From NCBI GenBank assembly GCA_964513645.1, contig CAZENF010000001.1:71303-135302 (forward strand): a DNA stretch of 64,000 nt, written 5' to 3'. The position numbers and the translations under genes are program-made. The notes below the pieces were generated by a model. It saw only the letters and a program-made list of their open reading frames with translations, had not been told where the DNA came from and made no database searches. Positions 5,404 through 62,923 of this stretch are shown here, in pieces (the stretch's first letter is position 1; the number at the start of each line of letters is the position of its first letter). The DNA comes from an uncultured Candidatus Saccharibacteria bacterium. Lineage in GTDB: Bacteria; Patescibacteriota; Minisyncoccia; 2-02-FULL-40-12; GWA2-44-9.

Positions 5404-6250
5404 TTATTTTGCCCATTCTATTTTTATAAAAATCAACGACTCCGGACAATATCGCGAATGATTCTTCTCTTTTATAATTTAAGATTATTTTTACAAACTG
5501 TTTTTTTATTATCCAAAAACTCCACGGCCAGAGAAATAGTTTGATATGCCATGGCCCATTCTTCCGGTTGAAATACAAAGCATTCCGGAAATGATAACGA
5601 AGAAGCAGAGGACTTCCTAATTTTTTCGTCGTTCCAGAAACCTCATGATAAGCTTTAGGTTTTTCCAAAAAATCAACCGATATTCCTTTGTTTTTTGCTC
5701 TCAAGCAAAAATCAGCATCTTCAAAATATAAAAAATATTTTTCATCCAAAAAACCTATTTTCTCAAAAACATCCTTATGGATAAGCATCCCGCCTCCAAT
5801 AGCATAGCCGTCGACCGGACCCGGATTATAAATATGCCCGAGAGTTGGTTTTAGCCACTCTATTTTACCGGCATAGGCAGTATGTGGCCCTTCATCCAAA
5901 GGTATGCCAAGAATGCCTGTTTTTGAGCCCAAAACTGACCTTAGAGAAGAGATGAAATCCTTTTCTACCCAAGCATCATTATTCAACAATAAAACCCATT
6001 CCGAGCCATTTTTTAAGGCTTCGCGAATCCCGGTATTGTTGCCGCCAGAAAATCCAAAATTTTCTTTATTCTCTACCAAAACTGCTCCAGAACCGATATT
6101 TTTCTTTAAATTATCGAGGTCATTTTTCTCGGAGGAATTATCTACAACAATAACTGAAAAATCATTATCTGTCTGTGCTTTCAATGTTCTTAAAAGATTC
6201 AGAGTACTTTCAGAACCGTTATAATTGATGGTTATGATCGTTAATCGCAT
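5396..6250 (-). CDS. family 2 glycosyltransferase
   Basis: MRLTIITINYNGSESTLNLLRTLKAQTDNDFSVIVVDNSS, a GT2 N-terminal fold. Confidence 0.8.
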   Translation of the reverse strand: MRLTIITINYNGSESTLNLLRTLKAQTDNDFSVIVVDNSSEKNDLDNLKKNIGSGAVLVENKENFGFSGGNNTGIREALKNGSEWVLLLNNDAWVEKDFISSLRSVLGSKTGILGIPLDEGPHTAYAGKIEWLKPTLGHIYNPGPVDGYAIGGGMLIHKDVFEKIGFLDEKYFLYFEDADFCLRAKNKGISVDFLEKPKAYHEVSGTTKKLGSPLLLRYHFRNALYFNRKNGPWHIKLFLWPWSFWIIKKQFVKIILNYKREESFAILSGVVDFYKNRMGKINV

Positions 6251-6549: not shown

Positions 6550-7632
6550 TTATAAAGAGTTTGTAAATCTTAAAATTTTATCTTTAAATTCTTTTTTCGA
6601 GAACTTAAGAGTGCTGTTTTTGATAAAAATTGGGTCGTATTTTTCATAATTTTCATTGAGGCGACGAATGCCGTCGGCCAGGGCTTCCGGAATAGCGTCA
6701 TCAAAAAATTCACCGGTCGCGCCTTCAATGACCGTCTCGCAAGCCCCGCCTTTTCGCAAAGCTAAGATCGGCTTGCCATATGACATCGCCTCTACGGACG
6801 TAATACCGAAATCTTCTTCCTGGGGCATTATAAAAGCCCGACAGTTCTGATAATAATACTTGAGTTTCTCATCATCAATAAATCCCAATAATTTAACATT
6901 CCTCGCTATCATTTTTTTAAGCCTGCCTTTCTCGGGCCCTTCACCAATAATGAACAAAGGTAGGTTTAATTTATTAAAAGCTTCGACCACTACATCTATG
7001 TTTTTGTGGGGGTAGAGGCGGGAAACAACGAGATAGTATCCCAAATCATCCAGAGATGATCTGAAATCTCCGGTAAAATTTACCGGAGGATAGATCACTC
7101 GGGAATCTTTTTGATAATATTTTTTAATGCGTTCCTGAACATGTTCCGAAATAGCGACGAATTCTGTTACCCGTTCAGATGCCTGCCGGTCCCAGATACG
7201 CAAAAAATGCTGTGCCAGAGAATAAAGGGCCGGCCTGGATGAGTACCTGAAAGAATCCGCGTGAAGGTCCCAAAGCTGGCGGGTCGGACTGTAGCAGTAG
7301 CAGATATGTTTTGTTTTGGGTTTCAGGACCAAACCTTTGGAAAATATCGCCGAGGAAGAAATGACCAGATCAAAATCTGACATATCAAAAGACTCCACTG
7401 CCGCCGGCATGAGAGGTAAAAGGTATTTATAGTTACGGGTAATCCCGGGTATTTTCTGTAAAAAACTTGTTCTTATAACCGCAGCCGGAAAATATTCTTC
7501 GGTAAATTTTTTATTCTGAAATAAAGTATATATCGGCGCCTCGGGAAATATTTTATGCAATTCCAAAAGCACACGTTCCGCTCCGCTTAAATTATTCATC
7601 CAGTCGTGGACTAAGGCAATTTTCATAAACAA
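6550..7632 (-). CDS. GT4-family glycosyltransferase
   Basis: MKIALVHDWMNNLSGAERVLLEL N-terminus and EDFGITSVEAMSYGKPIL C-terminal motif. Confidence 0.8.
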   Translation of the reverse strand: MFMKIALVHDWMNNLSGAERVLLELHKIFPEAPIYTLFQNKKFTEEYFPAAVIRTSFLQKIPGITRNYKYLLPLMPAAVESFDMSDFDLVISSSAIFSKGLVLKPKTKHICYCYSPTRQLWDLHADSFRYSSRPALYSLAQHFLRIWDRQASERVTEFVAISEHVQERIKKYYQKDSRVIYPPVNFTGDFRSSLDDLGYYLVVSRLYPHKNIDVVVEAFNKLNLPLFIIGEGPEKGRLKKMIARNVKLLGFIDDEKLKYYYQNCRAFIMPQEEDFGITSVEAMSYGKPILALRKGGACETVIEGATGEFFDDAIPEALADGIRRLNENYEKYDPIFIKNSTLKFSKKEFKDKILRFTNSL

Positions 7633-12578: not shown

Positions 12579-12926
12579 TTATTCAGTAAATTCTATCTGG
12601 GCCATTTCCGCGCCATCGCTTGTCCGACGACCAAGGCGAAAAACCTTAGTATAACCGCCGTTCCGGTCTTTAAATTTAGGACCGATATGGTTCATAAGTT
12701 TTTGAGCGGCTGTTTCTCCGATATCCTGCTTTATCTCTCTTTTGGCCGCGAGGCTGCTTTTCTTGGATTTGGTGACCAGTTTATCAGCAAAACCGGAAAG
12801 TGATTTGGCTTTGGCCAAAGTGGTCCTTATTTTGCCATGTTCAATTAGAGCCGTAGCTAAAGCTTTATAAAGCGCTTTGCGCTGATTTCTTGCTCTGGCA
12901 AATTTTCTTTTATTACCGCGGCGCAT
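12579..12926 (-). CDS. rplQ: 50S ribosomal protein L17
   Basis: HGKIRTTLAKAK ... GGYTKVFRLGRR..DGAEMAQIEF matches L17. Confidence 0.85.
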   Translation of the reverse strand: MRRGNKRKFARARNQRKALYKALATALIEHGKIRTTLAKAKSLSGFADKLVTKSKKSSLAAKREIKQDIGETAAQKLMNHIGPKFKDRNGGYTKVFRLGRRTSDGAEMAQIEFTE

Positions 12927-12931
12927 ATTGT

Positions 12932-13687
12932 TTATTTAGATTTCTTTTTCGTTTTTATTTCTTTGGCTTCTTTTTTCTTTGCTACAGGTTTTTCTTTCGA
13001 TTCTGGAACTTCGACGTCTGAAACCGTCTTGAAATGGTCTACTAATATTCCTGCGGCGCTTTTAAGCGCTTGTTCAGGTTCAATCGAGCCGTCTGTCTCT
13101 ACTTCCATGACTATTTTGTTATAATCGATCCTTTCGCCGACACGCATGCTTTCTATCGAAAAATTCACCATTTTAACCGGAGAGTACACCGCATCAATGG
13201 CGATAACTCCAATAGGAAGTTTATCTTTCCTTCTTTGTTCAACCGGAACGTAGCCGACGCCTTTTTCAATCTCAAGTTCCATGTTCATCGAAGCTTTCTT
13301 GTCGGTCAAAGTAGCGATGTGCTGGTCTTCGTTAATAAGCTCTATATCGGAGGTGAGCTTGATGTCCTTACCGGTAAGTTTTTTCTCGCCGCTGGCTTCT
13401 AAAATAACTTTAACCGGACCTTCTCCATGAAGTTTAAATCTTAATTTCTTAACGTTTAAGATGACCTCTATCACGTCTTCGAGAACTCCGGGAATAGTTG
13501 AAAATTCATGTTCGACTCCTTTTATCTTGATTGAAACGACGGCGGAGCCGGACAAAGACGATAAGAGAACCCGTCTTAATGGGTTTGCAATAGTAGCTCC
13601 GTATCCGGGCATCAACGGCGATATTTCAAAAACAACTTTACTGCCTTCTTTCGATACGACCTTAATTTTTTCTGGTAATTGTAACAT
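12932..13687 (-). CDS. rpoA: DNA-directed RNA polymerase alpha subunit (N-terminal domain only, Lys-rich tail)
   Basis: The alpha-NTD is conserved (VLEDVIEVILNVKKL). Only 251 aa, against about 330 in typical bacteria, ending in KKKEAKEIKTKKKSK. No alpha-CTD. Confidence 0.85.
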   Translation of the reverse strand: MLQLPEKIKVVSKEGSKVVFEISPLMPGYGATIANPLRRVLLSSLSGSAVVSIKIKGVEHEFSTIPGVLEDVIEVILNVKKLRFKLHGEGPVKVILEASGEKKLTGKDIKLTSDIELINEDQHIATLTDKKASMNMELEIEKGVGYVPVEQRRKDKLPIGVIAIDAVYSPVKMVNFSIESMRVGERIDYNKIVMEVETDGSIEPEQALKSAAGILVDHFKTVSDVEVPESKEKPVAKKKEAKEIKTKKKSK

Positions 13688-15971: not shown

Positions 15972-17942
15972 TCAATTCCCGTAATCTACGGTCAATTTTA
16001 TCCGGCTGCGGTCGGTCGGAACCTTAAAAACCCAGAAAGGCGATAGAATAACCCTGGCCGAAGTTACTCCGTCAACTCCTTTTATATATTCCTTGATGCC
16101 ATCTGAATTTTTACCCATCAGATCCGAAATTATTTTTTCCTGATCTACTGTCTGATAAACATTACCTTTAACCGCAACCGTAAAAGTCATTACCTTCTGA
16201 TCTTTATCAAAATTAACATTATCAAATTTTATATCCAGTTTATCTGGAAATACTGTCACTTGGTTTGCATTTTGAATTATCCTTGTTATGAGATCGTCAA
16301 AATCAGATTGTTTGAATCCGACAGTGTTAAGCGTAGCCGTGCCAGAAACAGTAAAGGTATCAGCCGCTTGATCTACCTGTGCGCTTGAAACAATATCGCC
16401 CATTTCCGGTGCGACATTGTCCAGGATCTTTAACTGGGCCGCCTGGCCTTTAAGGTCATTCTTAATATCTTCTGCCAGTTTTTTCTGAACAGCATCTTTG
16501 GCTTTTGCATAATCATCCTGGGTAACTACCTTGGCTTTTCCGATTATACCGCCGACCATCGCTTTATCTGCCTGGCCGTAAATTTTACCGTACCGGTCCA
16601 TGTCCCCTTTTTCTTTAAAAGCCGGCATCGTAAATTTCCCGGGACTTATATTATACGTATCACCCGCCTTATCGGCTATAACTTCAACGTCGATAGTTCC
16701 CGGTATTATCTTTCCGTTGACGACCTTTGTTCCGGGAACGGTAACGTTCTTTAATGTCCTGAATATCAGGCCATTGGAATTTTCGAAACGTGTCGTGGCA
16801 ATAAGTATCTGGTATGTGGTTCCGTACTCATTGTAGATTGTGATTGTGCCGCGCGCTTTTTGTGCTACATCTTTCTCGCCGGTCGAAGGAAAAGTCTGGT
16901 CTTCTTTTTTACTTAGAGAAAAAAGTTGGCCGGGTATTCTTTTCAAAGCCGGGTCGACGGAAGAATAAGAATCCGAAACGCTTATTTTTATTCCGGAAAA
17001 ATCAACCGGAGAAACTTTGGGTTTAATTATCAATTCTGCCTTGCCCATTGAAACATAAAGCACGAAGCCAAAAATTATAACCACCCCTAATCCGTAAAGA
17101 TAGAGCGTTTTTTTGGATAAATTAGAAACCCATTTACCGACCGGAAATCCTGGCAACTTGTAACCTTCGGTCGGACCGGCATATATCTTTTGAGGAACTT
17201 CGCGCCCCAGAGGTTCTTGAGGAGTCGGCATAGCACGCACGGGAGGAGACTCACGTCTTGATTGCCAAACATTTTGTATCTCATTCATTGCCGACCTTTC
17301 AAGCATTTTGCTTTTTACCGACTGCGAGCGCCTGAACTCGCGTCTAACTTCAACATCAAACGGTTGTTCTGCAGTCTCATCAACCTTAACACTCACTGGG
17401 TCTTCTTTTTCAGGCTGGATAATATCGTCCATTGATTTTGAAACCTTAGCCGCCGCAAGCACTGCGCTTTCTTCGGGATCAAGTTCCGGCGTTTCAGACG
17501 AACCATAATCAACTTCATCATAAGAAGGGCTTTTAAAACCTTCAGAATCATCTTCGTTCCGCATCTCATCTCTGGCAGTATTTGTTTCTTGATATTGGTC
17601 GTCCTTATCTTCTTCCTCGACATCTTCCTCGACATCTTCCTCGACATCTTCCTCGACATCTTCATCGGCTTCTTCTTCATCATCACTCTCACTGGTTAGA
17701 ATTCCAAAATTATAACTCGAAGCCATGGCATTTATCTCCGGATTTTCGCTTAAGATAAGGACGGCCTTATCTAATTCTTCGGAAACATCGGCTAAAAGAG
17801 AGAAATTATCTTCTTTGGCAAAAGCTTTCGGTCTTTTGGGCAAAACAAAAATGACCTCATCGGCCTGAGCTTTCTTGAAAATCTCGAGTATATCACTGAA
17901 CTTATCGTCCCGGAGGACGTTGATTATCTTTGTCCCCGCCAT
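15972..17942 (-). CDS. hypothetical single-pass membrane protein with acidic EEDV repeat region
   Basis: 656 aa. A conserved-looking N-terminal domain of about 85 aa, an acidic low-complexity region (EEDVEEDVEEDVEEDVEE), one TM helix (LYLYGLGVVIIFGFVLYVSM) and a C-terminal extracytoplasmic domain of about 340 aa. No family recognised. It sits where secY-adk-map normally precede infA. Confidence 0.5.
   Translation of the reverse strand: MAGTKIINVLRDDKFSDILEIFKKAQADEVIFVLPKRPKAFAKEDNFSLLADVSEELDKAVLILSENPEINAMASSYNFGILTSESDDEEEADEDVEEDVEEDVEEDVEEEDKDDQYQETNTARDEMRNEDDSEGFKSPSYDEVDYGSSETPELDPEESAVLAAAKVSKSMDDIIQPEKEDPVSVKVDETAEQPFDVEVRREFRRSQSVKSKMLERSAMNEIQNVWQSRRESPPVRAMPTPQEPLGREVPQKIYAGPTEGYKLPGFPVGKWVSNLSKKTLYLYGLGVVIIFGFVLYVSMGKAELIIKPKVSPVDFSGIKISVSDSYSSVDPALKRIPGQLFSLSKKEDQTFPSTGEKDVAQKARGTITIYNEYGTTYQILIATTRFENSNGLIFRTLKNVTVPGTKVVNGKIIPGTIDVEVIADKAGDTYNISPGKFTMPAFKEKGDMDRYGKIYGQADKAMVGGIIGKAKVVTQDDYAKAKDAVQKKLAEDIKNDLKGQAAQLKILDNVAPEMGDIVSSAQVDQAADTFTVSGTATLNTVGFKQSDFDDLITRIIQNANQVTVFPDKLDIKFDNVNFDKDQKVMTFTVAVKGNVYQTVDQEKIISDLMGKNSDGIKEYIKGVDGVTSARVILSPFWVFKVPTDRSRIKLTVDYGN
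17609..17668. repeat. 12-nt tandem repeat (catcttcctcga) x about 4.5 inside the CDS
   Basis: Seen directly. It encodes the (EEDV)n tract, and the antisense ORF MSRKMSRK is an artefact of this repeat. Confidence 0.8.
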
Positions 17943-17954
17943 TACCTTTCAATC

Positions 17955-18899
17955 TTACCACGATTTAGCTAAAAGCAAATCAACAGCTTCTTTTTTACCC
18001 TTAGTATCCATCAATTTAGCCCTGAACTCCTTGGCTCCGGGATAATTATTGATATATATCTTAAAAAATCTCTTCATAACATCAAAGTTCTTTCCTTCGG
18101 GCCAAAGTTTATCAAAATTATTGATATGCTTTAGCAATATCTTTACCCTCTCTTCCGGTTCGGCAACATCTCGGCCCGAGAAAAACCACGGATTTTGGAA
18201 TATTCCCCTGCCAACCATAATTCCGTCGAGACCGTATTGTTCGGCTTTTTGCTTTAGATCTTCCATGTTAACGACATCTCCGTTCCCGATAAATATTTTT
18301 CCTGAATTTCTAACGGTATCTAAAATTTTACCCAATTCATCCCAATGAGCCGGAACTTTGGACATTTCCTTGCGAGTCCGAGCATGAATTGATAAAGCTG
18401 TTATATCCGTATCGATAAGATGTTTCGGCCAATCAGGTTCAATCCTGTTGTAGCCAAGACGAGTTTTAACAGATACCGGAAGCGGACCCGCTCCACGAAT
18501 AGTTTCTTTGATAACCTTCTTTGCCAACTCCGGATCTTTTATCATCATCGCTCCGGCACCTTGTTTTTCCACCGACTTATCCGGACAACCCATGTTTATG
18601 TCTATTCCGTCAAAACCAAGTTCTTGGGCTAATTGGGCGCAGCGATACATGTTTTCAGGCACGGCTGAAAAGAACTGGACTACAATCGGCCTTTCGTTCT
18701 TTTCAAAATATAGTTCACCCCTGAATTTTTCTTTTCCAACCGCACATATCCCGTCGGCTGAAATAAATTCCGTGAAAAAAACATCCGGTCTCCCGGTTTC
18801 GATAATTATCTGCCTGAAGGCCCAATCGGTCACATTTGCCATCGGCGCCAGGACCGTAAAGGGCTTTTTTAACTTCTGCCAGAAATTATTCGTGGTCAT
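17955..18899 (-). CDS. dus: tRNA-dihydrouridine synthase (DusB-like)
   Basis: TIM-barrel flavoprotein motifs (LAPMANVTDWAFRQI, DGIDINMGCP). 314 aa. Confidence 0.85.
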   Translation of the reverse strand: MTTNNFWQKLKKPFTVLAPMANVTDWAFRQIIIETGRPDVFFTEFISADGICAVGKEKFRGELYFEKNERPIVVQFFSAVPENMYRCAQLAQELGFDGIDINMGCPDKSVEKQGAGAMMIKDPELAKKVIKETIRGAGPLPVSVKTRLGYNRIEPDWPKHLIDTDITALSIHARTRKEMSKVPAHWDELGKILDTVRNSGKIFIGNGDVVNMEDLKQKAEQYGLDGIMVGRGIFQNPWFFSGRDVAEPEERVKILLKHINNFDKLWPEGKNFDVMKRFFKIYINNYPGAKEFRAKLMDTKGKKEAVDLLLAKSW

Positions 18900-18900
18900 A

Positions 18901-19127
18901 GCAGAATTATATCCCTATCTCCGACCGGATGTCCAAAATCTCTGCGCATTTTGGCACCCTATCCCCTCGGCATTTCGAAGATCCGTTGTTAAGTCCGTGC
19001 TTATTTGTTACCGAAAATTATTCGTCAAAGCTCTAATTTTCGAACAAATGGGCACGACCGCCTTACGGCGCCTTATTGATGAGCCGAAATGCCTGCGGGA
19101 AATTCGGACTTAGAGATATAATTCTGC
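18901..19127. other. candidate structured RNA or MITE-like element bounded by 13-bp inverted repeats, strand unresolved
   Basis: gcagaattatatc at 18901-18913 pairs with gatataattctgc at 19115-19127. The 200-nt interior is GC-rich with several internal helices. It has weak, topologically inconsistent resemblance to RNase P CR-I and CR-V. Confidence 0.3.
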
Positions 19128-19182
19128 TATTTTGTTTAGCTATTTTAGTAAAAACATAGAATTTAACAGGAAAAAGCTAATC

Positions 19183-38688: not shown

Positions 38689-38701
38689 GTTTGATTTAAG
38701 C

Positions 38702-38836
38702 AAATGGCTATATTCTTTCGCTACCGTTCGCTCGCCCAACGAGCTCGCTCACTGCCTTTCGTCGGTCGCTCTCTCGCTTCGCTCGAACCATGCCCGCTTC
38801 CCTCCTCGAAGCGCGCGAGAAGAACATAGCTATTTG
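38702..38836 (-). promoter_or_regulatory. GC-rich structured leader element, copy A of a two-copy family, immediately 5' of atpA
   Basis: Conserved core shared with 48281-48431: ttcgctaccgttcg ... cactgccttcgtcggtcgctc ... gaaccatgcccgcttccctcctcRaagcgcgcgagaag. It is flanked by copy-specific terminal inverted repeats of 13-15 nt that covary between the two copies. Confidence 0.5.
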
Positions 38837-38847
38837 CTTAACTAATT

Positions 38848-39225
38848 TTATTTAAATAATTTTTTAAGCTTATTGTTCAAAGAATTGTCCAACTCCTGAT
38901 CGCCATTGATCGTCACCCTGACTCCGGCGACCAAGGAAGGGTTTAGTTTAAATTCAACACGGTCTTTTTTTGAAAAATTTTTCTTAATATTATCTATCTG
39001 GGAAACGCTCGCTTCTCTCGCTAATTCAACGATTACCCAATTTCCGCCGTTCAAACTAACGGCCTTTCTTTGAATTTTATTTAATATCTCGTCTTTGTGG
39101 GAAATATCGCCGTTTTTTTTCAGTAATTTTATAAAATTAGGAACAATGGACGCTCTCTCGACAGCCGGAATTTCATCTAACACATCCAGAAAAGCATCAA
39201 CGTAATTGTTTATTAAATATTTCAT
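38848..39225 (-). CDS. atpH: F1 ATP synthase delta (OSCP) subunit, short form
   Basis: Position between atpF and atpA. 125 aa, helical with an OSCP-like C-terminus. Confidence 0.6.
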   Translation of the reverse strand: MKYLINNYVDAFLDVLDEIPAVERASIVPNFIKLLKKNGDISHKDEILNKIQRKAVSLNGGNWVIVELAREASVSQIDNIKKNFSKKDRVEFKLNPSLVAGVRVTINGDQELDNSLNNKLKKLFK

Positions 39226-46906: not shown

Positions 46907-48286
46907 CTAAATTATATCACTATTTTTAATATGTGTCAATAATCCGGCCGAGAACCAGAACACTATCCTCCCCTGCTGAAGGGTCATTAAAAAATGGTCG
47001 AAAAAGCCAATGAACAAAACAGAGATGAAAAAAAACAGAACCGAAAGCTGGTAAGATTTACTAAGCTTTGTCTTCAGGATAAAATCTTTTAACAAAAAAT
47101 ATAAAAATAAAATGAATGCCGTCAGACCTAAAAGACCGGTTTCTGAATAGATGAGCAGGTATATGTTATGGACCGGCTGATAAGCATAATTAGGAAGCAT
47201 CGGCTGTTTTTCCATCAGCCAGTTCACGAAATTACCAGCACCTACGCCAAGAAAATTAATTCCCCCTCCAGTCATTAAAGCCACTTTGTTGTAAAAACCC
47301 CTTAGTTCTACGGCCTGATCATCCGGGTTTATAGTTGAACGGGTTATTATAGCTTTGAAATAAATTGAACCGAAAAGGAGAATAACCACAAAACCCGCAA
47401 TAAGAATGGCTTTTATACGTTGCCGGCTTTCATCGGTCCCAAATATTATTCGGTAATGTTTTCTTGATAAAATTATTATGCCACGAATACAAAAAGTGAT
47501 GAACCAGATAAAAATAACGACCCTCGAAAAGGTCGCAAAAAACCCAAAAAGGATAACGCCGTAGGACAAAATAAAAAATTTATCCCAGTTGTCTGATAAG
47601 GGGCTGTGCTCTACATGAATCTTCGAATATAAATAAACAAAATAAAACGCAAAAATGGATAAGAACAGAGAACCAGCCAGAACGTTCGGATGCGGAGTTG
47701 TGCCATAAGCACGTATGAATTTATCCCCGTTTTGAAGATAGAATGAAGCCACCCCGGCAAGTTCTTTGTTCAGAACGCTTTCACCCAGATATTTAAGCCC
47801 CAGGCTTGATTGTTTGAACAACTGGGTCATTGCGATCAAGGCTTGGAAAACTCCTCCGGATAATATTGCCAAGAATGTTTTATATAAATCGAATTTGGCT
47901 AAAGCGTATCTCGAGATATAAAAATAAAAAACAACAAATTCAACTAATTTAAACCATTGATACCAACTAACCGTAATGTTGGTCGAATTTTTTATAGAAA
48001 TAAGAGAGATGGTCAAAAAAATAACAAGCCAGGGGTCAGACGTTTTAAGCTTTGATTTTAAAAATTCAAACTTGTTCGGAGGTTGGAATTTAGGATTTGT
48101 GTTTTTTTGATAAGAGTTTAAAAACCAAAAAATAAATAAAACGGCCAGTAATATATCCGTCAGATAAACACTGACCGATAGCCATTCATTAAAACGCCAA
48201 TCCGAATACCATAAGATCTTCCTGGTCTCAAAAGGAATACAAAACAAAAAAACATAAAAAAGACATTTTTCGAGTTTCAGAAACAT
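46907..48286 (-). CDS. O-antigen ligase / Wzy-like polytopic membrane protein
   Basis: 459 aa, more than 10 TM helices and a large periplasmic loop. Confidence 0.5.
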   Translation of the reverse strand: MFLKLEKCLFYVFLFCIPFETRKILWYSDWRFNEWLSVSVYLTDILLAVLFIFWFLNSYQKNTNPKFQPPNKFEFLKSKLKTSDPWLVIFLTISLISIKNSTNITVSWYQWFKLVEFVVFYFYISRYALAKFDLYKTFLAILSGGVFQALIAMTQLFKQSSLGLKYLGESVLNKELAGVASFYLQNGDKFIRAYGTTPHPNVLAGSLFLSIFAFYFVYLYSKIHVEHSPLSDNWDKFFILSYGVILFGFFATFSRVVIFIWFITFCIRGIIILSRKHYRIIFGTDESRQRIKAILIAGFVVILLFGSIYFKAIITRSTINPDDQAVELRGFYNKVALMTGGGINFLGVGAGNFVNWLMEKQPMLPNYAYQPVHNIYLLIYSETGLLGLTAFILFLYFLLKDFILKTKLSKSYQLSVLFFFISVLFIGFFDHFLMTLQQGRIVFWFSAGLLTHIKNSDII

Positions 48287-48431
48287 GGCTTTAACCTTTC
48301 GCTACCGTTCGTATTCCCAGCGAGAATCCTCACTGCCTTCGTCGGTCGCTCCCTTGTCCTTCGGACAAGAACCATGCCCGCTTCCCTCCTCAAAGCGCGC
48401 GAGAAGGTTAAAGCCATGTTTCTTAATTATC
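48281..48431 (-). promoter_or_regulatory. GC-rich structured leader element, copy B, overlapping the start codon of the Wzy-like gene
   Basis: Same conserved core as 38702-38836. It has perfect 15-nt terminal inverted repeats, aaacatggctttaacc and ggttaaagccatgtt, that include the ATG at 48284-48286. It also has an internal C(UUCG)G tetraloop hairpin. Confidence 0.5.
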
Positions 48432-48470: not shown

Positions 48471-48499
48471 TTGACAAATTAATAATTTAATAGTATAAT
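48471..48499 (+). promoter_or_regulatory. consensus sigma70 promoter (TTGACA, 17-nt spacer, TATAAT)
   Basis: Perfect hexamers read directly. It drives a GC-rich 5' UTR of about 170 nt. Confidence 0.6.
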
Positions 48500-48677: not shown

Positions 48678-49097
48678 ATGAGCTTGACCCTGTTCCGCGC
48701 TGATGTGATCGAGGTTCTTGTGAAAATGGAACTGGCACCCTACCAGTTCCACCTCACGGGTTCCCGGTTCTTCGGCCGCGCTACCCCTGGTTCGGATTGG
48801 GACTTCTTCGTGGAATTCAATCCGGACCTGGAGGGCTGGCTGATCTGTAACGGATTCTACCAAGAATCTTCTACAGACTACGCTTCAGCAGACATCTCTG
48901 AGGTTTGGAAGCATGTATCGTTCCCGATACATGTCCAAGTCATCAGCGATGCCCGCTTGAAAGCGGACGTCCAGAATCACCTGCAGAACTATTCGCACAC
49001 GCTCTATGGTGTGCCGAAAGAGTACCGCAAGGCGATCTGGAACCTTGCCTTTGACCTGTTTCAAACAGGCCAAAGACAAGCCGCCGAGCTTTTCTAA
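48678..49097 (+). CDS. small nucleotidyltransferase-fold protein (Pol-beta superfamily motif GS...SDxD)
   Basis: GSRFFGRATPGSDWDFFVEF matches hG[GS]x9-13Dh[DE]h. 139 aa. GC-rich codon usage. Followed by a long terminator hairpin (agctccgcac...gtgcggagct plus T-run) at 49098-49150. Confidence 0.45.
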   Translation: MSLTLFRADVIEVLVKMELAPYQFHLTGSRFFGRATPGSDWDFFVEFNPDLEGWLICNGFYQESSTDYASADISEVWKHVSFPIHVQVISDARLKADVQNHLQNYSHTLYGVPKEYRKAIWNLAFDLFQTGQRQAAELF

Positions 49098-61248: not shown

Positions 61249-61613
61249 TTTTTATCACTACCGACTACCCGGCTTATCGCAACAAAACCATATCCCCAAA
61301 GTATCGGCAGCCAAATCGGCATTATTCCAAGCAAGCTATAGCGGTTAAAAACTTCGACATTGGACAAGATAAAAATAAATTCAAAAAACATCATCAGAAC
61401 CATTCCGCCGAAAAATATTCCCCATTCTCCAGGATATTTTTTAAATTTAAAAATAGAAAAAATTATAAGGATATATACCGTCGCAAGCCAGTAATCATTC
61501 TGTATCACCGGCACCAATGCCACCATAAAAATTATGGGGATGGCATTCAAAATTATTTTATATAATTTGGACATCCGATAAATATGGCTGTGTGTAATTT
61601 TATTTATATTCAC
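61245..61613 (-). CDS. hypothetical small membrane protein
   Basis: Three to four TM helices. 122 aa. Confidence 0.3.
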   Translation of the reverse strand: MNINKITHSHIYRMSKLYKIILNAIPIIFMVALVPVIQNDYWLATVYILIIFSIFKFKKYPGEWGIFFGGMVLMMFFEFIFILSNVEVFNRYSLLGIMPIWLPILWGYGFVAISRVVGSDKK

Positions 61614-62073
61614 CGATAATCACTTTGGGTTTAATCCCTGATGCTCTGCATATCATGAGCCGAGTATTTCCGCTTACCAGATGCAAAATTCCGTCTTTTT
61701 TAATAATAGTTGGAATTTCTATCCCATGGCCGTTCTCAAATACCCTCAAAAGTTTTTTAAAATCACGTTTATTTTCAGAAGCTAATTCGCTGTTTGATTC
61801 ATCTATCGCCTGTCTGGCATCTTCGAAATGTCCAGGTCTCACGTTGTGATATGAATCCGTATTCTCGAGTGATGCCCAAAGTTCTTCTGTTAATTCAGTG
61901 GTCTCGGATTTATTTATAATATCGATGACGTGATCCACATTTTCTTTTGAAGGTTCTAAACCAAGAAAACCGATAACCACTCTTTCTATTTCACCTCTTT
62001 CAGATTCCATATCTGGCCGAACCCAGTTAACTTCAGCTATTTGTTCAATTATATCAGTCTCTATTTTTTCCAT
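61600..62073 (-). CDS. hypothetical protein
   Basis: 157 aa, acidic N-terminal half. No family recognised. Confidence 0.3.
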   Translation of the reverse strand: MEKIETDIIEQIAEVNWVRPDMESERGEIERVVIGFLGLEPSKENVDHVIDIINKSETTELTEELWASLENTDSYHNVRPGHFEDARQAIDESNSELASENKRDFKKLLRVFENGHGIEIPTIIKKDGILHLVSGNTRLMICRASGIKPKVIIGEYK

Positions 62074-62329
62074 AAAAATAAAATGTGAGATAGTTGGTTA
62101 TATTTATTTTAAAACCAGCGAAGCTCTTTTATTTCGTAGACCGTCTTTTTTCGAGCGGCTAAATGCTTAAATTAATTAAAAATTAAGTTATTCAACAAAT
62201 TTGAGGGGAGGTCTTCCGACGAGGCTCAAATTTGTTAGCTTAATTGAGATTAATTTAAACATTTAGCCATGAAGATAAAAAGTAGGTCGAAAAATGAAAG
62301 GGCAAAGCAATTAAAATAAATATCCCAAA

Positions 62330-62923
62330 CTATCTCTTCCCCAATATCTTTAACGCCTCCCTTACCCTTTCCTCCAAAGTTTTACCTTTTGATTCTTTCA
62401 AAGCCTCCTTGGCCTGATATTGAGTATAGCCAAGAGCCAGAAGTGCTTCGACGGCCTGACCCTCCTGACCCAAATCAACGCCTTTCATGTCGCCGATATC
62501 AAGAAAATCTATCTTATTCTTAAGCTCAAGCACCAAACGCTGGACGGTTTTGGGACCAAGTCCGGAAACTTTTTTTAAGTAATCTGCGTCTTCGTTCACG
62601 ACTGCAGCTTTTAAATGTTTGGGTTCAACGACTGACAGAATATTCATCGCACCTTTTGGACCAATGCCGGAGACCGAGGTCAACAAATGGAATAGGTCCA
62701 AATCCTCTGATTTATCGAATCCGTACATATCAAAAGTCCCTTCACGCATATTGAGTTGCGAATGAGTAAACAGCTTAACTTTGCCATTGACATCCTCCCT
62801 GGTTTTTGATAGAATATTCACTAACTTGGGAGAGACTATTACCCTGTACCCTATACCACCGGCACTCAAAACGACCTGTTTTTCACCCAAATGTTCAATT
62901 TTACCTTCGAGAAAACTGATCAT
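62330..62923 (-). CDS. ruvA: Holliday junction branch-migration protein RuvA
   Basis: N-terminal OB fold (MISFLEGKIEHLGEKQVVLSAGGIGYRV) and HhH pairs (GIGPKGA, GLGPKTVQRL). Confidence 0.85.
   Translation of the reverse strand: MISFLEGKIEHLGEKQVVLSAGGIGYRVIVSPKLVNILSKTREDVNGKVKLFTHSQLNMREGTFDMYGFDKSEDLDLFHLLTSVSGIGPKGAMNILSVVEPKHLKAAVVNEDADYLKKVSGLGPKTVQRLVLELKNKIDFLDIGDMKGVDLGQEGQAVEALLALGYTQYQAKEALKESKGKTLEERVREALKILGKR

Follow-up and report, generated by a model that had tools for sequence, protein, structure and literature searches.

Why does the start codon of a membrane protein gene in an uncultured Candidatus Saccharibacteria bacterium lie inside a long, perfectly paired RNA helix? The gene in question, identified by Pfam as encoding a Wzy_C (O-antigen ligase-like) membrane protein and here called the wzy-like gene, occupies positions 46907-48286 on the minus strand of a 64,000-nucleotide stretch of contig CAZENF010000001.1 (hereafter the window). 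Its ATG (48286-48284) falls in the outer stem of a structured element, here termed copy B, which covers positions 48279-48425 on the same strand. An initial annotation, which had rightly placed this ATG within the stem, described the element as a leader in which a small upstream open reading frame (uORF) is translationally coupled to the main gene. We propose instead that copy B is, on balance, probably one copy of a rare, non-coding and structured insertion element, about 145 nt long and non-autonomous, which has been found in the small Patescibacteria or candidate phyla radiation (CPR)-type genomes of groundwater-type bacteria; on the best reading of the data, burial of the start codon is incidental at copy B, and the element is no dedicated leader for the wzy-like gene.

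Searches with nhmmer and with a covariance model (R1) across every fetched locus identified 4 distinct copies of the element, at 4 unrelated loci in 3 genomes. Two of these are in the window, namely copy B, which R1 recognizes with 159 bits (E 1e-38), and copy A at 38698-38841 (minus strand), whose near-identical core bears out an earlier report of a second copy. The other two, designated L027 and L066, were recovered by exact-pattern scans. Among 185,579 species genomes, L027 was the only true match; it belongs to a metagenome-assembled genome of Candidatus Yanofskybacteria (RIFCSPLOWO2_02_FULL_45_18, Parcubacteria group), and 25 further matches (in Collinsella and others) were due to chance. 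Among 241 M metagenome records, there were 2 true matches, L066 and L077, as well as 36 chance matches, mostly at sites in high-GC genes where a ribosome-binding site (RBS) precedes an ATG. L077, a contig from the Joint Genome Institute (JGI), is identical to L027 and thus represents an independent recovery of that copy, and the copy B locus also recurs in Logan assemblies made independently from two runs (L002 and L003). An additional locus, L056, resembled the element by eye and was rejected as a member by the model search. No copy was found in viral, phage and plasmid collections (five viral-contig pattern scans yielded chance matches or none, and blastn against phage and plasmid sequences yielded no match). 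The whole 64-kb window contains no tRNA and no Rfam family at gathering score, with only noise (E 1.5-6.9, 13-18 bits) between 48150 and 48600 at E ≤ 10, and no Rfam family was matched at the L027 or L066 copies. Literature searches returned nothing relevant on CPR palindromic, MITE (miniature inverted-repeat transposable element) or structured-RNA elements, and an exact look-up of the wzy-like protein and the neighboring nucleotidyltransferase, as a route to strain variants of the copy B locus, found neither recorded. As judged from these sequence searches, the element family is real but rare and patchy. With regard to the sources of the metagenomic loci, L077, L056 and L087 (Ga0209542) and L066 (Ga0209541) trace back to a single JGI metagenome or to sister ones, where the copy of Yanofskybacteria type and that of L066 occur alongside a relative of the window organism whose AtpH is 51% identical; the carriers may have a habitat in common, and this would be in keeping with horizontal spread.

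All 4 copies share a five-helix fold in which a closing helix of 20-23 bp (P1) surrounds a G+C-rich core of approximately 105 nt. Within the core, P2 (GC-G-CGCUUY paired with GAAGCG-G-GC, with the loop GAGGAGG), P4 (GCGACCG/CGGUAGC) and P5 (CAGYGAG/CUCGYUG) are maintained in sequence across copies and show no covariation, being either conserved or altered only by G·U to G-C changes. P3, by contrast, is CUUGUCC/GGACAAG in copy B, CUAUCCCGCCC/GGGCGGGAUAG in L066 and CGAGC/GCGAG with tandem G·A pairs in copy A and L027. Apart from P1 and P3, the core sequences of copies A and B hardly differ; the P5 loop and the junction J5/4 vary, the helices and junctions of the core are conserved, and P1 and P3 covary. 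RNAalifold predicted 48 pairs for the 4 copies, 15 of them with double changes. In a covariation alignment of the 4 sequences fitted to model R1, 96.4% of pair cells were standard pairs, as compared to 37-41% when the partners were slid by 1-3 columns; changes on both sides were found at 19 pairs, a number reached by 0 of 500 shuffles, and in P1 such changes affected 17 of 23 pairs.

The initial annotation had left the functional strand in doubt. This can now be settled, since over the 4 copies 15 pairs are G·U in the gene (minus) sense and mismatched on the other strand, with just 1 pair behaving in the opposite way, and since the minus-sense fold is more stable than the plus-sense fold in every copy; it is thus the minus strand of the window that is structured. 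Taken together, compensatory changes and G·U asymmetry establish, at the level of sequence comparison, that a single-stranded fold has been selected on the gene-sense strand. A plus-sense GUCC-UUCG-GGAC tetraloop hairpin, previously cited as a reason for this doubt about the strand, proved to be a misreading; the actual sequence is GUCCUUCGGAC, which is 11 nt rather than 12 nt long, one G having been counted twice, and which forms a hairpin of 7-9 bp with a 3-nt loop on both strands (GAA in the minus sense and UUC in the plus sense).

Copy B itself is richer in G+C than the window (0.52 versus 0.42) and is tightly folded; the 147 nt from 48278 to 48424 (minus strand) have a minimum free energy of -70.6 kcal/mol (z = -8.3), as compared to a shuffle mean of -41.9 kcal/mol, and 0 of 200 shuffles were as stable. 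P1 is a perfect helix of 20 bp in which the 5' arm AGAAACAUGGCUUUAACCUU (48423-48404), itself containing an AUG (48417-48415), pairs with the 3' arm AAGGUUAAAGCCAUGUUUCU (48298-48279), which carries the wzy-like start codon; a 1-nt bulge and 2 further pairs then lead into the core. The stem strands reported earlier, at 48282-48298 (minus) and 48404-48420 (plus), are indeed exact reverse complements, but their length of 15 nt was understated, as the strings given are 17 nt long and the perfect helix extends to 20 bp. The copy B version of the invariant P2 hairpin (GC-G-CGCUUU/GAAGCG-G-GC) spans 48376-48400, with its 7-nt loop GAGGAGG at 48391-48385, and is followed by the core AUG (48373-48375), by the variable P3 hairpin UUCUUGUCC GAA GGACAAGGG (48351-48371), whose place is taken in the other copies by unrelated sequences that also pair, and by P4 (48301-48349), where an inner CG/CG pairing extends the conserved helix and changes between copies are only one-sided, from G·U to G-C. 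P4 encloses the conserved helix P5 (CAGUGAG GAUU CUCGCUG, 48335-48318). An in-frame TAG in the core (within GGUAGC) rules out any start of the wzy-like gene upstream of 48286; a comparison of paralogues for the N-terminus of its product was uninformative.

Evidence that the element is an insertion comes from the loci at which it resides. The 159 nt that separate the atpH stop (38848-38850) from the ATG of atpA (38688) are taken up by copy A, and in five related operons (L004/L005, L006-L008, L078/L079, L080-L084 and L085-L087), where AtpH is 42-54% identical, the same junction has no element, the two genes abutting, overlapping or lying 32-60 nt apart. These empty orthologous sites show copy A to be a lineage-specific insertion. 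The L066 copy occupies nearly all of the intergenic sequence that separates recO from a hydrolase gene, beginning 5-6 nt past the stop and ending 5 nt before the ATG. The L027 copy is located inside mnmA, on the opposite strand and in frame, such that a 433-aa ORF remains uninterrupted; the encoded protein scores 401 bits against the MnmA equivalog NF001138, and its alignment with PDB 2hma is interrupted exactly at the element, where residues 170-218 (49 aa) stand against 10 aa. A second CUCGCGCG motif is present in L027 at approximately 6598-6606 (minus strand), 35 nt upstream of the core, and the 5' end of that core itself reads AAAGCGCGC rather than CUCGCGCGC; within mnmA, the 5' end of the element may have been partly duplicated or rearranged. 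The genes downstream of the copies (atpA, the wzy-like gene and recO) are unrelated, with the L027 copy antisense within mnmA, so that the element shows no association with a gene family. Copies at unrelated loci, empty orthologous sites, a length of about 145 nt and no coding capacity for a transposase are all features of insertion elements in the broad sense. The arms of copies A and B resemble each other (AAG..AGCCAU.U..CU), with an inner part that is common to L066 too (AAGAWWAUAGCC), and the ATG in the arm of copy B is AUU at the matching place in copy A. Copying of the arms from the insertion target was thus rejected for copies A and B, as their likeness indicates that the arms are borne by the element and have diverged by compensated change.

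Insertion at copy B is predicted to have a large effect on the start codon of the wzy-like gene. With the element intact, opening of the region from -12 to +14 around the AUG was calculated to cost 23.8 kcal/mol, while the corresponding values for 44 other genes of the window have a median of 5.8, a 90th percentile of 10.5 and a maximum of 15.6 kcal/mol. The comparison of folding energies with and without the element that the initial annotation had proposed gave a clear difference, as deletion of the 5' arm and core lowered the cost from 23.8 to 9.2 kcal/mol; a similar value, 8.7 kcal/mol, was obtained for an RNA that begins inside the element. In folded copy B, initiation at the only usable ATG of the wzy-like gene would thus be strongly hindered, and since this ATG lies within the folded 3' arm of P1, expression of the gene is probably low or dependent on melting of P1. 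On the opposite strand of the same intergenic region, a perfect sigma-70 promoter (TTGACA-17-TATAAT, 12 of 12 positions; 48471-48499, plus strand) faces the divergent nucleotidyltransferase gene at 48678-49097, and organisms of the window type appear to use canonical promoters.

One candidate for melting P1 would be a ribosome translating through the element, and this brings up the explanation from which the work started, i.e., a dedicated cis-regulatory 5' leader in which uORF translation melts the stem and allows termination-reinitiation at the hidden start. At copy B, the geometry is exact. As the initial annotation had described, a uORF that begins at the core AUG, 9 nt past GGAGG, terminates 7 nt past the ATG of the wzy-like gene, at a UGA (48279-48277) that overlaps its codon 3 (CUG) and codon 4 (AAA). 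This uORF has 32 codons, and its frame already opens at the 5'-arm AUG (48417), giving a 46-codon ORF (48277-48417); in addition, opening of the GAGGAGG loop would cost only 2.4 kcal/mol, as compared to 23.8 kcal/mol for the occluded main start. An exposed RBS-like loop, with a uORF running through a helix that hides the start, is the textbook arrangement for leader-peptide coupling. Moreover, GGAGG-N9-AUG is identical in 4 of 4 copies, and the copy A uORF ends within the 3' arm, with its stop 19 nt upstream of the ATG of atpA. However, the ORFs that result have 27, 32, 13 and 34 codons and stop at differing places, with that of L066 ending after 13 codons, approximately 80 nt before recO; a stop that overlaps the main ORF, and a start codon within the stem, are found in copy B only, and neither peptides nor frames are conserved. 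The host also barely uses Shine-Dalgarno (SD) sites. SD-like motifs at -20 to -4 precede just 2 of 52 ORFs of the window, a stretch that does not include the 3' end of the 16S rRNA, and 0 of 7 in L066, the upstream regions being A/T-rich, and on these counts it is doubtful that GGAGG serves as a ribosome-binding site in this organism. A gene-specific leader would also be expected at orthologous positions, yet five relatives lack it between atpH and atpA, a junction at which the copy A insertion is lineage-specific; the genes that follow the copies are unrelated, and one copy runs antisense within a coding region. The anatomy described earlier (stem, buried start and overlapping stop) hence stands, while its interpretation as a leader does not hold at the level of the family, and we regard a dedicated leader as unlikely. 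Stem opening that depends on the uORF is possible for copy B alone, where coupling would be a by-product rather than the purpose of the element; it is not a property of the family. The same conserved RBS-like motif and AUG could alternatively mark a gene for a short Arg-rich peptide conserved at the protein level, and indeed the frame reaches the 3' arm in 3 of 4 copies (27, 32 and 34 codons) and is kept between copies A and B by compensating indels of 4 nt and 1 nt. Against such a small protein, which we consider highly improbable, are the early stop in L066, covariation that fits helices and not codons, and the translation of the invariant block GAGCGACCGACG in different frames in copies A and B, which places conservation at the nucleotide level. 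Database searches with translations of the element also gave nothing real. Concatenated translations (six-frame, 985 aa; four-frame, 150 aa) had no such protein among the matches listed, a weak negative in that the L027 MnmA itself was missed, and P0017, the sole match in the representative library to a translation in the MnmA frame, is a 1915-aa repeat protein whose similarity is compositional and was dismissed as spurious.

A module that benefits the host (e.g., an RNase III processing site or insulator, a self-cleaving or protein-binding RNA, or a device that juxtaposes stop and start codons and so preserves coupling) is the least easily set aside of the alternatives, although still a rather doubtful one in our judgment. 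Selection on the gene-sense single strand would be expected of such a module, and the pattern of conservation resembles that of functional RNAs. All 3 intergenic copies are oriented with their genes, P1 in copy A and L066 is separated by 6 nt from the stop upstream and by 5-9 nt from the start downstream, and several stem-closed elements with unrelated cores are similarly placed in this genome and its relatives (see below). These points have to be set against an extremely rare and patchy distribution, against five related atp operons that function without the element, and against the copy antisense in mnmA, where an RNA acting in the sense orientation could not act on the host transcript; in addition, no ribozyme or other Rfam model matches. 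A chance palindrome or an assembly artefact, for which only the general caution speaks that metagenome assemblies can create inverted repeats, is scarcely credible given the independent assemblies of the copy B and L027 loci, the failure of any of the 200 shuffles to fold as well, and the 2 occurrences in the window of a 20-nt core motif that is expected 0.02 times.

We therefore return to the insertion element, which in its behavior appears closest to three known groups of small elements, while departing from each. Rickettsia palindromic elements (RPEs) are palindromic insertions that occur in frame within protein genes and leave the ORF intact (PMC10969869). The element shares with them a length of roughly 100-150 bp, a non-autonomous and hairpin-forming nature, and residence both between genes and in frame inside housekeeping genes, insertion in frame into a conserved gene being seen for 1 of the 4 copies (L027, in mnmA). 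RPEs are, however, high-copy elements of Rickettsia with a conserved peptide per family, whereas the element is very low-copy, resides in CPR-type hosts and has no conserved peptide; its fold is also distinct, in that a multi-helix junction combines a sequence-invariant core with a hypervariable closing stem. Repetitive extragenic palindromic (REP) sequences and the paired REPs known as REPINs are likewise short, extragenic and thought to act single-stranded, REPINs being mobile hairpins that are kept by compensatory changes (PMC3116915); they are mobilized by RAYT (HUH, Y1) transposases and, like the element, contain no transposase themselves. Yet REPINs, which are normally abundant per genome, consist of two inverted conserved REPs with a variable middle, the reverse of the conserved middle and variable ends found here, and none of the approximately 47 proteins scanned with Pfam in the 64-kb window is a REP-associated tyrosine (RAYT/Y1) transposase. 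Finally, MITEs such as Correia, ERIC and RUP are small, non-coding and structured when transcribed, and insert in operons and leaders, where they alter the stability or translation of neighboring mRNAs, but they have conserved terminal inverted repeats and target-site duplications; the arms of the element pair within a copy and differ between copies, being alike only over the inner ~10-12 nt (AAGAWWAUAGCC).

Several other classes were considered and rejected. With respect to an integron attC site, copy B has GCTTTAAC and GTTAAAGC, which are off the consensus of the R'' (RYYYAAC) and R' (GTTRRRY) core sites by one position on each side; nothing similar is found in copy A, L066 or L027, there is no cassette array, and housekeeping genes lie between the copies. 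Group I and group II introns are considerably larger than 145 nt, the only intragenic copy is antisense, and no Rfam intron model matched. A retron (no reverse transcriptase), a terminator (no U-tract) and a tRNA-like structure (no ARAGORN match) were also rejected.

If the element is indeed an insertion element, it would spread, or would once have spread, as a single-stranded intermediate (a transcript or single-stranded DNA). A trans-acting enzyme encoded elsewhere would recognize the conserved core, while P1 and P3 would need only to pair, and tight self-closure would spare neighboring genes from disturbance. A number of observations weigh against this proposal. The 4 distinct copies are too few for preferences in orientation and target to be tested statistically. 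No transposase, reverse transcriptase or integrase was found by Pfam among the window proteins mentioned above, which are housekeeping in nature (the atp operon, glycosyltransferases, MreB, Lon, a Mur ligase, RuvA and a beta-CASP RNase among them). Inspection by eye revealed no convincing target-site duplication; a possible 10-nt imperfect repeat, TTAAAT(A/C)AAA, surrounds copy A, and nothing comparable is present at copy B, L066 or L027. In their outer halves, the arms differ from copy to copy, unlike the terminal inverted repeats of classical MITEs. The core has been kept across three genomes, even in helices that are free to covary, which is more reminiscent of a functional RNA or protein-binding site than of decaying selfish DNA. 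The common orientation of the intergenic copies with their flanking genes (3 of 3, each ending 5-9 nt from or on a start codon) could mean a function at the level of the host. Lastly, a promoter scan called nothing on the minus strand for the wzy-like gene; a lone TATAAT noted by eye at 48445-48440 would place the transcription start approximately 10 nt upstream of P1. We also considered a bolder version of the insertion hypothesis, in which CPR bacteria harbor, in this element, a mobile structured RNA of a new class, closed by a stem, with a catalytic or protein-recruiting core, copying itself via RNA or single-stranded DNA and tolerated since its closing helix would rejoin what the insertion had separated, whether the stop and start codons on its flanks or both halves of an ORF. 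This seems to us rather improbable.

On that bolder version, the element might also belong to a wider uncatalogued class. The window and related atp operons contain, at equivalent positions, at least 4 other stem-closed elements of 130-250 nt with unrelated cores. Within the window, a 239-nt multi-branched structure at 18895-19133 (minus strand; -99.6 kcal/mol, z -8.5) has no Rfam match and a core unrelated to that of copy B; its closing helix of 20 bp extends into the ATG (18899) of a gene for Dus (dihydrouridine synthase), which makes it the second case in the window of a stem over a start codon. A near-perfect rod hairpin of 256 nt at 62084-62339 (minus strand; -83.9 kcal/mol, z -10.3), again without an Rfam match, takes up the region separating ruvA (62330-62923) from the gene that follows (61600-62073), and its 5' arm overlaps the ruvA stop. 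Among the related loci, L006/L007 carries between atpG and atpD (12862-12994, plus strand) a 133-nt element with a G+C-rich core and a 14-bp A/T-rich stem (z -5.7), which is unrelated in sequence to copy B and gave no R1 match. In L078, a 130-nt stem-closed structure (5883-6012, plus strand; helix AAUCUCGC/GCGAGAUU, z -5.5) lies between the atpA stop and the terminator and is absent from the homologous site in L085 (3374-3400), an insertion polymorphism of another structured element. Apart from these structures, the window contains six tandem 12-nt units TCTTCCTCGACA (17587-17682) within a 656-aa ORF (15972-17942) that has no Pfam match; the repeats presumably encode an acidic repeat.

If our interpretation of copy B is correct, small-genome CPR bacteria, which to our knowledge are otherwise regarded as having few repeats and little mobile DNA, would carry uncatalogued and compact structured insertion elements that can interrupt operons, cover start codons and even reside in frame in genes for essential enzymes. 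Such elements would matter for annotation, as they bear on the assignment of start codons, on spurious small ORFs and on apparent insertions in conserved proteins, as well as for gene expression, where they bear on how genomes without Shine-Dalgarno sites tune their genes. For RNA discovery, an invariant core of 105 nt combined with freely covarying closing stems would be the signature of recognition as a folded single strand. For the window organism itself, the prediction is that the wzy-like surface-polysaccharide gene would be translationally throttled.

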